Position numbers and translations under genes: made by a program. The notes below the pieces were generated by a model. The model ran no database searches, was not told where the DNA came from, and saw only the letters and a program-made list of their open reading frames with translations. From a virus (lineage: Duplodnaviria > Heunggongvirae > Uroviricota > Caudoviricetes), in IMG/VR virus record IMGVR_UViG_2724679236_000009, positions 1 to 4,410 of that record: DNA of 4,410 nucleotides. One strand, given 5' to 3'. This document shows, in pieces, positions 1 to 4,407 of the stretch. Position 1 is the stretch's first letter. Each line of letters opens with the position of its first letter.

Positions 1-423
1 ACTGGCTACCTGCATGAGGCTATTTTTTGTTTCGTCCGCTTCCCGGATCCGAAACAGTTTTTCTGCTTCTGCATCTTTCACCCAGGCTGTGCCGTTCCAC
101 TTCTGATATTCCCCTTCCGGGGATAACCAGGTGACATTTTCCGGTAACGGACCAAGTTCAGAAATAAATAACGCGCTCCCTGATTCCACGTTATAAACCG
201 TTTTACCCCGATGATCTTCAACGAGATGCCATGACTCCTCTTCACTGTTGAAAACAGCCACGAAACCAGCCGGAGTATCCGGTGGAGCAATATCCGTAGA
301 ATTAGCTGGCAGACCTGTATGCGGTGGAATATATGCATCACCTTCACCAATAAATTCATTAGTTCCGGCCAGCAGGTTATAGATTTTTATAGTCCGTGAT
401 TGTTCACTCATTCTGAATGCCAT
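1..423 (-). CDS. tfa: Tail fibre assembly protein Tfa (chaperone for side tail fibre), truncated by the window edge: 141 N-terminal codons present, remainder lies beyond position 1
   Basis: Minus-strand ATG at 423..421 opens a frame that runs without stop to position 1. My own translation begins [141 protein letters not shown], which is near-identical over its length to phage lambda Tfa as I recall it. The supplied ORF track misses this gene because it has no stop in the window. SD-like GTGAGG (complement of 432..437) sits 8 nt upstream of the ATG. Position immediately downstream of stf matches lambda gene order. Confidence 0.9.
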
Positions 424-3400
424 TATGCAAGCCTCACAATATAGTTAAATGCGATGTTTTTGACGGTGTTTTCCGCGTTACCCGCAGCGTTAACGGTGAT
501 GGTATGTCCATGCGCACCCAATGCCACTGTGTGTGCATGGGCACCAATGCCTACGGTATGGTTATGCTGACCAATATTGACGGTATGAGCGTGAGCCCCG
601 GCAGAGCTTGACACCTGGTTGGTTCCTGATACCTGTACGCGTTGTTTACCACCAACAGAGTCACCACCATAGCGCCCACCGACAGTGTGTGTATGCGCTC
701 CCGTATTGTTTGTCGTTTTTGTGCCGTGGTTAAACGTGCTGACCGTTTTTGTCCCGTAATCAAACGAACTGGTTGTTTTCGTCCCCAAATCCGTACTGGA
801 TGCACTGGCACTGTGGGTGTGAGATTTAATGCCGTCCTGTTCCTGTGACAGAATTTCACGACCACTGACGGGCTTGCCCTTAATCATCCAGCCACGCATA
901 TCAGGGATCACGCCTGACGGATAAGCGACTGCAAGTTTCGGGTATGCAGATTTGTCAAAAGTCTGCCCCTGCATCAGGGCATAACCAGACGGAACGGTAT
1001 CTGATGGCCACGGGATTGGTGCGCCGACTGGGTAGCTTTCTGGTGGAAGATTTTTCGAGGTATAAACTTCTGCCCAGCCTTCCTCAAAACCATAACCGTC
1101 TCTTGAAGAACGGTAGAACAGACCACCATTTCTGTAATGCGCCTTCATCTGCAAGGTCCGGCAACTTCCGACTCCGGTATAGAAGTTAACCAGAATATAG
1201 CTGTCGCCAGAGCGGGTGACATTGTAAGCGCCTGATTCGGCATTCCAGGGAACGCCACCATCCGCATCGGCATATGTATCCGTTGCCCTTCTGGCAAAAG
1301 CAGCCACATGCGCGGCGGTTAAAGTAATATCTTTTGAACCATCAAACTCAACCCCAGAAACCAGTCTTGGCGTTTGCAGCTTTGTTGCTGTCAATGCGTT
1401 ACCGTTCAGACTTGCGGACAGTTTGGTTCCAATAACCAGTTCGCCGGTTGCGTTATCAATAGCAAACGGTCTTAATGCATTCCAGCCACCATAAACATCA
1501 CCTTGATTGGTAAGCAGCAGATAAGTTTTAGCGCCGTCATTTCTCCATAATGCACCATATTCCCCACCTATCATTCGAATCTGATTACCACCACGCGCTA
1601 CAATTTCGTCTGTTGCGAAAAGTTTTTTGCACGACAAGTTATCGTTAACAATTAACGAATGAGATTCGTAAAAACCGCGCCCACTTTTAAAATCAAGGAT
1701 AACGTCAGCTGCGACACATTCTGTCGCCGGATTTATTGCCCCAAACTTATAGGTCGTATCATTAACAACGAGATCAGCACCCGGTGTGGATATTGACAGG
1801 CCATCTTCGATAAACGCAAAAACAGGGAAAGCAGCACCATCAACATAGAACACAGAGCGCAAATCATCGCCCTTATTACTCATCATTATTGAGTGAATGG
1901 CTCGTTCATTGTTTTGATATTGCCAGAACATTCCATAGGCATAACGCCCCCTGTCAGTCCAGCCGCCAGGCATAACGAATCCATTAAACTCACAGTTATT
2001 TAGTGGATCGTTCGCAGTTCGTGTTGCGGTAGTAATAATTACTCTTGATGCCAGCTCGCTTACTGAGCCAGCAGAGCGCATAACAACAACAGGGTAATAT
2101 TTCCCCGGTGTTGCACCTGCCGGAGCATTAACGCGCACATAACGCATACCATGCTTAGCAGCAAAGTCGGTTTTGCTGACCGCATTAATGTTGTTCAGGA
2201 AAGCGCCCTTATCTGGAATATCTTTACCGTTCTGATCTTTCTGCAGACGTTTCTCAGCATTGTCATTGGCTGCTTTTACTGCCTTTGGCGTTGCCGCCAG
2301 TGACTCGGAAGTGCTGTTGGTCGCGTTACTAAGTTTCACAACACCTTTAGTTGTAAGACTTGCGTCTTCCATCGCAACCGCGCCAGCAATCTCTTCAGCA
2401 CGATCAGCGGCAGCTTCTGCACGAGTCGCAGCGGATTCAGCGGCAGTTTTGCTCTGAGATGCAGCCGTCGCACTGCCTGCTGCTTCTGTTGCCTTCGTGG
2501 ATGCCGTTGTGGCGCTGCCCTTTGCTGCTGACGCTTGTCTGGTCGCCTCATCTTTTGAAGCAGACGCCGATGATGCCGATGACGCCGCCGAACTGGCGGA
2601 CGATGCGGCTGCCGCCTTAGAGGAAGCAGCATTGTCTTCTGAAGTCTTTGCATTTGTTTCAGAGGTTTTTGCTGCCGATGCTGAATTTTTAGCAGCTGTA
2701 GCCTGACTCGTCGCCTCAGTCGCTTTTGCGGTAGCTGTTGTCGCTGATGACAATGCGTTTTCCGCAGATTTTCCAGCGGCGGTGGCACTGGCTGAGGCCT
2801 GCCCGGCACTTGTTGACGCGGCACTGGCTGACGACGCAGCCGCTGTTTTTGAGCCTGCCGCAGCTGAGGCACTCTGTTCCGCTGCCGTTTCAGAGGACTT
2901 AGCGTTTGTCTCAGACGTCTTTGCCGCCTTCGCAGAATTTCCTGCTGCCGTTGCCGAAGAAGCTGCACTACTGGCGCTCGAGGCTGCGTTCGTTTCTGAT
3001 GATTTTGCCGCCTCTTTTGAAGCCGCTGCATCCCTGGCTGACGTGGCAGCTTCTGACGCCTTCGTGGTTGCAGTAGATGCAGAAGTGGCCGCAGATTTTT
3101 GTGACGCTACAGCATTCGTTTCTGACGTTTTCGCATTCGTCTCAGACGCCTTTGCCGCCTTCGCAGAATTTCCTGCCGCCGTTGCCGAAGAAGCGGCACT
3201 ACTGGCGCTCAAGGCTGCGTTCGTTTCTGATGATTTTGCCGCCTCTTTTGAGGCTGCGGCATCCCTGGCTGACGTGCTGGCGGCACGTGCTGAATTTCCC
3301 GCATCAGCGGCATGACTCGCCGCCTGATTGGCTGATGCACTGGCATCGCTGGCTGATTTCTTCGCGGCTGCCGTATTCTGTGCAACCGCGGAGGCGTTAC

Positions 3401-3743
3401 GTGACACCTCTTCCACCATCTGCTCAAAGCGACGCAGTGCCTCCGGCCGGACATCATCCTCCGTCATTGCACCGAGGAAATCATTCAGTGTGCCCGGCTT
3501 TGAGTCCTCATACACGGTGATAATCCCGGCATGTGACGGTGGAAATCCCTCCACCAACAGAATGACGCTGTACTGGCCGAACTCAACGTCCATTGTGTAA
3601 CGCCCGGCTTCATCCGGGTTTTCTGAAGCCACCGTGTTCACCACCACCGTGGTGCTGTTACGTCTGGCTTTCAGCTGGATTGTGCAGTTCTGTACCGGTT
3701 TTCCTGTACCGTCTTTCAGTACACCTGAAATCTTTACTGCCAT
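423..3743 (-). CDS. stf: Side tail fibre protein Stf, lambdoid type, intact full-length (~1106 aa from ATG at 3743; the ORF track starts at an in-frame GTG at 3749, two codons upstream)
   Basis: Single 3.3-kb minus-strand ORF with stop TAA at 425..423. N-terminus (M)[35 protein letters not shown]...[33 protein letters not shown] matches the lambda Stf (orf-401) N-terminal domain as recalled. Contains the conserved fibre motif [33 protein letters not shown] (about 2282..2350), a long Ala/Ser/Thr-rich repetitive shaft, and a C-terminal HxH-rich tip ending ...[31 protein letters not shown] at 3743 is preferred over GTG at 3749 because GGGG (complement of 3749..3752) is 5 nt upstream of the ATG and the GTG lies inside that SD-like element. 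Confidence 0.92.
432..437 (-). promoter_or_regulatory. Shine-Dalgarno-like element for tfa, embedded in the last codons of stf
   Basis: Minus-strand sequence ...AUUGUGAGGCUUGCAUAAUG: GUGAGG is 8 nt upstream of the tfa ATG, and the stf stop overlaps the tfa start (TAATG). Confidence 0.5.
2902..3045. repeat. Copy A of an in-frame ~144-bp direct repeat inside the stf shaft-coding region
   Basis: 2902..3045 and 3133..3276 align without gaps at about 94% identity (roughly 9 substitutions), offset 231 bp = 77 codons. They encode the duplicated peptide [19 protein letters not shown](A/L)[21 protein letters not shown](A/T)SETNAK. Confidence 0.85.
3133..3276. repeat. Copy B of the in-frame ~144-bp direct repeat inside the stf shaft-coding region
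   Basis: See copy A. Shorter degenerate units encoding K(T/S)SETNA recur around 2620..2700 and 3105..3150. Confidence 0.85.
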
Positions 3744-3746
3744 ACT

Positions 3747-3752
3747 CACCCC
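3747..3752 (-). promoter_or_regulatory. Shine-Dalgarno-like element for stf
   Basis: Minus-strand sequence UUUUUUGUGGGGUGAGUAUG: the GGGGUG run is 3-5 nt upstream of ATG 3743..3741. Confidence 0.45.
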
Positions 3753-3754
3753 AC

Positions 3755-3781
3755 AAAAAAGCCCGCCTGAACCGGCGGGCT
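3755..3781 (-). terminator. Putative Rho-independent terminator downstream of lom, directly abutting the stf ribosome-binding site
   Basis: On the minus strand the RNA would read AGCCCGCC-GGUUCA-GGCGGGCU (8-bp GC-rich stem, 3760..3767 pairing with 3774..3781, 6-nt loop) followed at once by UUUUUU (complement of 3755..3760). On the plus strand the A-run precedes the hairpin, so this is a terminator for minus-strand transcription only. Confidence 0.6.
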
Positions 3782-3807
3782 GTCATAACACTGTGTTACC
3801 TGGCTAA

Positions 3808-4407
3808 TCAGAATTTATAACCGACACCCACGATGAAACCATCAGTGCGCCAGTCACCACTGCCGGAGCCTTCATAAGCAATATCAATGGCCACGGATTC
3901 GGTCGGGTTAAACTGCACGCCAGCCCCCCACGCCAGAGACGTGTTACTGTGGCGACCGTCATCACTTCCGGTCAGCACATCGTGCGTTTTCCCCTTGTTG
4001 TCAGTTACGCGGAGATAATCCCCGGAGAAAGTCGACACACGGCTGTAAGCCACACCCGCCATCGCATACGTGCTGAACCATTCATTCACGCGCACAGATG
4101 GCCCCGCCATCACGCTGAACCAGCGGTTACGCACAGAATCTTCATGCCAGCGGGTATCGCTGTAACGGGTAAGCTGGCGATTCCTGTCTCCTGCATAGCT
4201 GAATGACGTCACCATTCCCAGCGTGTCCGTAAACTCATAACGGTATTTCACGTTAATCCCGTTAAGCTCATCGCTGCCGGAAACGTTCGTCGGGGCATGA
4301 AGATAGCCCGCGCTCAGCGTGGACTGATGTTCAGACGCCCATGCAGGCGCACCGGATACGGCCAGACAGATGGCTGCGGACAAAATGGCTGCACAAACTT
4401 TACGCAT
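3808..4407 (-). CDS. lom: Lom outer membrane protein (Ail/Lom/OmpX-family 8-stranded beta-barrel; lysogenic-conversion type gene), 199 aa, intact
   Basis: ORF with ATG at 4407..4405 and stop TGA at 3810..3808. N-terminal signal peptide [25 protein letters not shown]-terminus ...[24 protein letters not shown] matches the lambda Lom C-terminus as recalled and ends in the terminal Phe typical of outer-membrane beta-barrels. Alternating aromatic/hydrophobic stretches ([31 protein letters not shown]) fit beta-strands. Sits immediately upstream of stf as in lambda (J-lom-stf-tfa). Confidence 0.9.
4336..4407 (-). other. Predicted Sec signal peptide of Lom (24 aa, predicted cleavage after AWA)
   Basis: N-terminal MRK (positive n-region), hydrophobic core [16 protein letters not shown], then A-x-A motif (AWA) before SEHQ. 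Called by eye only. Confidence 0.6.

Follow-up and report, generated by a model that had tools for sequence, protein, structure and literature searches.

A Probable Rho-Independent Terminator Closing the lom Cassette, Ahead of the Side Tail Fibre Gene of a Lambdoid Prophage

A G+C-rich hairpin followed by six U's is located between lom and stf in a 4,410-nt stretch of a lambdoid prophage (hereafter the window). The element very probably is a Rho-independent terminator that closes the lom cassette on its 3′ side; it would bound the lom transcripts of the lysogen, leave stf and tfa silent and be read through under Q. As such, it would mark where this lysogenic-conversion cassette ends and would explain how a prophage expresses an outer-membrane, virulence-associated protein with the neighbouring tail-fibre genes off. 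Its importance lies mainly in correct annotation.

The genes lom, stf and tfa of the window are all on the minus strand. In the list of open reading frames, lom (3808..4407, with its TGA stop at 3810..3808) encodes an Ail/Lom outer-membrane beta-barrel protein of 199 aa, which is matched over its full length by Pfam Ail_Lom (E = 4e-119); its DNA is 96-97% identical to lom of 434-type and Stx phages. The StfR-like side tail fibre gene stf (423..3743) encodes 1106 aa from the ATG at 3743 and has the Pfam domain phage_tail_N at its N-terminus (E = 1e-72). The list begins this gene at the in-frame GTG 3749, upstream of the ATG at 3743, and it is the latter that is homologous to the annotated start of K-12 stfR. 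The 5′ part of tfa (1..423, translation MAFRMSEQ...), encoding the tail fibre assembly protein (Pfam Caudo_TAP, E = 1.5e-12), runs off the left end of the window. The stop of stf and the start of tfa share one base (TAATG, 421..425, minus strand), an overlap which suggests that translation of the fibre is coupled to that of its assembly chaperone.

The gap between the two same-strand genes lom and stf is 64 nt long. On the coding strand, from 5′ to 3′, it consists of the UGA, 26 nt, A-GCCCGCC-GGUUCA-GGCGGGC-U, UUUUU, GU, GGGG and UGAGU, and then the AUG (3743..3741). In detail, the 26-nt spacer UUAGCCAGGUAACACAGUGUUAUGAC (3782..3807, minus strand) leads from the lom stop to the stem-loop (3760..3781, minus strand), which comprises the 5′ arm AGCCCGCC (3781..3774), the loop GGUUCA (3773..3768) and the 3′ arm GGCGGGCU (3767..3760). 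Eight pairs are formed, seven G-C and a closing A-U, around the 6-nt loop. Immediately 3′ of the stem, on the same strand, is UUUUUUGU; the U6 tract (3755..3760, minus strand) has a first U that is able to pair with A3781. The Shine-Dalgarno sequence of stf, GGGGUGA (3746..3752, minus strand), has its GGGG (3752..3749) 5 nt before the AUG.

An earlier sequence-only reading had placed a GC hairpin with U6 on the transcribed strand, 27 nt past the lom stop, and this is exact: the hairpin starts at that distance on the minus strand. The same reading let the U tract end 5-6 nt before the Shine-Dalgarno sequence, which holds if that sequence is taken as GGUGAG or GUGAG, but not for the G run, since the last U lies 2 nt ahead of GGGG and 11 nt ahead of the ATG.

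The hairpin was the best match of the terminator scan (8 pairs, 7 G-C, loop of 6, tail TTTTTGTGGG). Its folding energy is -18.2 kcal/mol, compared with -8.5 +/- 2.5 kcal/mol in shuffled sequences (z = -3.9; 0/200 shuffles as good). When both strands of the window were scanned with a strict definition (7 or more perfect pairs, including 6 or more G-C, a loop of 3-8, and 5 or more T among the 6 positions that follow), the lom-stf hairpin was the sole match, and 300 dinucleotide shuffles of the window, likewise scanned on both strands, contained 0 such sites. A d'Aubenton-Carafa-type score, calculated with current energies and terminator-like when positive, amounted to +34 to +43, with a T-tract score of 4.0-4.5. 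RNA folding and terminator prediction on the minus strand, both named in advance as checks, therefore came out in favor of the terminator, the second one ranking this hairpin first. On the plus strand no T run follows the hairpin, so the site is unidirectional.

The element consequently has what is looked for in an intrinsic terminator, i.e., a G+C-rich stem of some 5-14 pairs with a short loop, a U-rich tract, and a sense, non-coding position 3′ of a gene. Judging from how intrinsic terminators work, the terminated RNA is predicted to end at about 3756..3752, and the 26-nt spacer would be long enough for the hairpin to fold clear of a ribosome halted at the lom stop. The literature search found no published RNA 3′-end mapping or termination-efficiency data for the lom-stf site, nor experimental mapping of its annotated counterparts in other phages, and the supplements of Adams 2021 gave no match to stfR, lomR or the coordinates.

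The variation of the element was followed in 152 lom-stf junctions, which were taken from Stf-start pattern matches in IMG/VR, from contig loci of one genome per species and from annotated records, and which reduce to 32 distinct variants. A further 80 IMG/VR loci, found by the Stf N-terminus, were tabulated apart. In the 32 variants, 97% of the stem cells are paired. The stem changes that recur in several loci all replace C by U, at positions 2, 7, 16 and 20. In the lom-sense RNA the pair survives as G.U, at a cost of only 2-3 kcal/mol, whereas the complementary strand would have an A.C mismatch there. Three changes break a pair (C4 to A, G19 to A and G1 to C), and each of them is limited to a single contig. 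This wobble-compatible pattern suggests selection on the sense-strand RNA, although it is statistically not strong.

No pair is changed on both sides among the 32 aligned variants, and the covariation score equals that of shuffled controls in this shallow family; the evolutionary support of the hairpin therefore comes from conservation and wobble-compatible changes only. The 26-nt spacer is nearly invariant among the 32 variants. Because the intergenic flanks are as conserved as the hairpin, conservation alone does not single it out. The start region of stf, GTGG(G/A)G(T/G)GA(A/G)TATG, is conserved behind every hairpin type seen.

The lack of both-sided pair changes within the family and the equal conservation of the flanking intergenic sequence would suit a chance palindrome, or a site acting at the DNA level, with no role in transcription. 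However, a comparable site arose in 0/300 shuffles, the U tract is found on the coding strand only, and diverged loci have other, non-identical hairpins with U tracts at this position. The probability left for a chance or DNA-level origin is almost negligible.

A small open reading frame of 42 aa (3658..3786, minus strand, MTARRF...) begins in the lom 3′ spacer, crosses the hairpin and is in a different frame from stf. It was rejected as spurious: it has no Shine-Dalgarno sequence and its ATG is not kept, the start codon being ATA in locus L150 and ACG in locus L107. In records of BP-4795, lom and the tail fibre gene are separated by a "hypothetical protein", which may be this same frame. The terminator reading argues against annotating such a hairpin-spanning small frame as a gene.

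It had also been proposed from the sequence that a hairpin so near to the Shine-Dalgarno sequence could modulate the translation of stf, and this part is not supported. Accessibility was calculated by folding a 131-nt read-through RNA and an RNA which begins just after the hairpin. The mean unpaired probability of the Shine-Dalgarno sequence was 0.63 with and 0.63 without the hairpin, and that of the AUG was 0.53 and 0.58, respectively. The hairpin is self-contained, its arms pairing with each other only. Regulation of stf translation by a hairpin folding beside, or pairing with, the Shine-Dalgarno sequence or the start codon has in its favor the short distances from the stem base (8 nt to GGGG and 17 nt to AUG) and one 78-nt minimum-energy fold that joins an upstream GCCA to the UGGC of AUGGC. 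This extended fold, however, is not better than shuffles (z = -1.7; 8/200 as good), and together with the barely altered accessibility it makes such regulation very unlikely; the features of a sequestered ribosome-binding site or of a translational operator were not found. A steric effect of the hairpin on the ribosome standby site is possible.

Another role for the element would be the release of the lom 3′ UTR with its terminator as a small regulatory RNA, either Hfq-binding and derived from the 3′ UTR or resembling 24B_1. According to the literature, the module usually bound by Hfq is a terminator hairpin ending in a U6 tail, and a small RNA of Phi24B has been reported between lom and the next gene (PMC4426718). 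In its specific form, an RNA of about 55 nt (26-nt lom 3′ UTR, hairpin and U tail) would be made in the lysogen, bind Hfq and have its own targets; if true, it would account for a spacer no more variable than the hairpin among lom alleles with only ~44% protein identity. The general form is nevertheless extremely unlikely, and the ~55-nt RNA is so to the same degree. No Rfam family scores at or above its gathering score over the element, the literature search yielded no paper linking lom with an sRNA, and lom is not mentioned in the EHEC sRNA papers examined. The 24B_1 RNA itself, located "between lom and vb_24B_43", was rejected as unrelated: its authors describe the region in Phi24B as another sequence, of 428 nt, which the analogous region of lambda lacks and in which no intrinsic terminator is predicted (PMC4426718).

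When the whole window was searched against Rfam with a cut-off of E <= 1, nothing credible came up at the site; the best match there, to Trp_leader, reached 21.7 bits (E = 0.47), below the gathering score of 41. Inside tfa, a partial match to IS009 (RF02111; 63 bits, E = 4e-13) was found at 1..80 on the minus strand; it covers model positions 1-80 of 199, is cut by the window edge and stays below the gathering score of 117. Three weak isrG matches (17.8-26.5 bits, gathering score 100) are located at 2402..3226 on the plus strand, antisense to stf. They fall in an Ala/Ser-rich part of stf with repeated protein segments (...SETNA...) and most likely reflect these coding repeats rather than an RNA gene.

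The phages without lom are informative for the origin of the element. Loci L080 and L194 read J, the J terminator, TTTTTTATTT, and then GTGGAGTGAGT or GTGGAACGAAT before the ATG of stf. At the RNA level this is GGGCGCC-AGAAAU-GGCGCC or GGGUGCC-AGAAAU-GGCACC, followed by UUUUUUAUUU, by GUGGAGUGAGU or GUGGAACGAAU, and by the stf AUG. In phage 434 the order is the J terminator (GGGCACC...GGUGCC, UUUUUUAUU), the lom ribosome-binding site, lom, the lom-stf terminator and the common stf start region. Since the lom-less loci proceed from J and its terminator to the same stf ribosome-binding site, lom and its terminator form an inserted cassette (a "moron"), and the comparison of L080 and L194 with 434 places the insertion point immediately 3′ of the T run that belongs to the J terminator.

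The stretches compared for the J terminator are ~2330..2420 of L080 (stf orientation), ~1125..1203 of L194 and 1043..1072 of L001. Two pairs of the J terminator are changed on both sides, as 434 has GGGCACC/GGTGCC, L080 has GGGCGCC/GGCGCC and L194 has GGGTGCC/GGCACC. Judged by these aligned sequences, the J terminator has better evolutionary support than the lom-stf hairpin.

Besides the J terminator of L080 and L194, only the E. albertii-type and the Citrobacter-type hairpins were counted as alternatives. The E. albertii-type spacer (7 IMG/VR loci) has a 12-pair stem of -20.5 kcal/mol and U7, and then GGUGGAAAAGU and the AUG. The Citrobacter locus carries a diverged copy, TGCCCGCU-UCCC-GGCGGGCA, in which the closing pair A-U has become U-A and the U run is weaker, directly ahead of GGAGGG and a stf-like start. 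In Proteus and Xenorhabdus, too, the lom homologue has a hairpin with U6 of its own.

In the loci of the L009, L031 and L185 type (E. albertii and 7 IMG/VR contigs), the alternative spacer from the lom-like gene to stf is longer, and it contains two serial hairpins, ACGCAGGUUCA...UGAACUGCGU and then the 12-pair stem with U7.

Two further hairpins ahead of stf were rejected as functional evidence. In L116 and L178, which come from the same IMG/VR contig, the terminal hairpin of a transposase (CCTCCGG-CTAT-GCCGGAGG) replaces the lom terminator before the stf Shine-Dalgarno sequence, and the cause is the insertion of a transposase gene of the IS200 type (Pfam Y1_Tnp, E = 5.5e-38). L072, in the 160 nt upstream of the stf start, shows a prophage deletion with its joint inside the loop of the hairpin; what remains of the element ahead of stf is the 3′ arm with the U tract. 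The sequence fused to the 3′ arm is presumably a fragment of a phage endolysin gene.

The diversity of hairpins at this place can also be read in another way, namely that stf is preceded by a general barrier which is not specific to lom and which shields stf-tfa from non-Q transcription, lom having brought a second copy. Four hairpin sequences (those of the window, E. albertii, the J terminator of L080/L194, and Citrobacter) end 8-15 nt before the stf start region, and the J terminator has been changed on both sides of two pairs (434, L080 and L194). On the other hand, the terminators of the Proteus and Xenorhabdus lom homologues stand before genes whose starts are unlike stf, which fits a terminator that travels with lom. 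A barrier of this kind is quite possible, if held tentatively, and as it would work by the same mechanism, the lom-cassette terminator is not really excluded by it.

As a terminator of the lom cassette, the element would function as follows. Polymerase unmodified by Q would enter from the lom promoter in the lysogen, or from stray initiation upstream; once the G+C-rich hairpin and U6 are transcribed, the RNA would be released a few nucleotides short of the ribosome-binding site of stf, and stf-tfa would therefore be silent in the lysogen. The lom mRNA would in this way acquire a protective 3′ hairpin. After induction, Q-modified polymerase coming from the late promoter would ignore the terminator and produce a single late J-lom-stf-tfa message. 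We infer each of these three elements, i.e., termination at the site, expression of the lom allele of the window in the lysogen and read-through under Q, from the lambda literature.

A role in the late mRNA itself is unlikely. The hairpin could serve there as a 3′ stabiliser, as a processing barrier, or as a partial terminator of Q-modified polymerase that sets the ratio of J/Lom to Stf/Tfa. The hairpin is strong, stable 3′ hairpins are generally known to shield mRNA from exonucleases, an effect also cited for lambda tI, and a site between the essential J and the dispensable stf-tfa is compatible with such functions. Nevertheless, Q-modified polymerase, as known from lambda, passes intrinsic terminators efficiently, and the sequence offers nothing that separates these functions from plain termination.

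Concerning the promoter side of the cassette, the sigma-70 consensus scan of the J-lom region of phage 434 gave no plus-strand promoter; the window excludes the lom promoter region, and no consensus promoter was matched near lom or stf. The lom gene of lambda is reported to be transcribed in lysogens (PMC7067206, PMC1151598), while an array study, which notes how little is known of the lom promoter, detected no lom mRNA in a lambda lysogen (PMC2147009). As Lom of the window is ~44% identical to Lom of lambda, these expression data apply by analogy only. Chen et al. relay Juhala's idea that terminators within the late operon help to silence stray prophage transcription.

A 401-nt segment around the site has matches in 204 records of lambda-like, 434-like and Stx-converting phages, most of them at 95-99% identity. 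At the lom-stf junction the element is present in lambda, 434, Ayreon, Stx phages and K-12 Rac. The same hairpin with U6 is found without change in phage 434 (OL657226.1, 19615..19642), in phage Ayreon (MF807953.1, 19128..19173) and between lomR and stfR of K-12 Rac. In lambda (lom / orf-401, between 19585 and 19650), the loop is changed and one G-C pair is G.U, resulting in a 9-pair stem of -17.7 kcal/mol. The spacer from the Shine-Dalgarno sequence to the start differs, being GAGTATG in the window and GAATATG in most relatives, and the downstream stf of the window is a long StfR-like allele.

The lom of the window is of the 434 type, with a protein identity of ~44% to Lom of lambda, while from ~45 nt before the end of lom, through the gap and into the 5′ end of stf, the DNA is nearly identical to that of lambda (3808..3855 of the window; ~740..786 of L003). 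A mosaic joint therefore lies inside the 3′ end of lom. Over the whole window, no complete E. coli genome exceeds ~91% identity, although related pieces are present in 5156 of 5426 genomes. The lom-stf junction alone is ~97% identical to phage records, so the differences across the window appear mainly in stf.

The records of 434 and Ayreon annotate a "terminator" exactly at the lom-stf hairpin, by computation, and both contain a second such annotation between J and lom; the lambda reference records have no terminator feature at the lom-stf junction. The element has thus already been recognised as a computational annotation. The principal claim of the sequence-only reading, a terminator on the transcribed strand between lom and stf, agrees with the canonical motif, its conservation at the junction and its annotation in two phage records. 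By its sequence, the lom-stf hairpin is an ordinary, strong terminator of textbook type, already known.

A close counterpart is the J-lom terminator of lambda, 434 and the lom-less relatives, which lies outside the window. This is likewise a G+C-rich hairpin with a T run, on the same strand and just before the next ribosome-binding site, and in lom-less phages it occupies the exact place of the lom-stf terminator. However, its stem is unrelated to that of the lom-stf hairpin, and its loop has 4 nt (GGAA in lambda; GAAA in 434, L080 and L194).

In PMC3594210, which summarises Juhala et al. 2000, a moron is an added gene of the late operon that is equipped with a promoter and a terminator of its own and is expressed from the prophage. 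The G+C content of lom is not deviant (0.55-0.58, compared with 0.52-0.61 in the adjacent 5′ region of stf). Most loci have the gene, whereas the otherwise collinear L080 and L194 lack it, and its own predicted terminator is placed at the downstream end of the cassette. The lom cassette is in these respects a clean example of moron architecture, for which the empty site (J, terminator, stf) is available for comparison.
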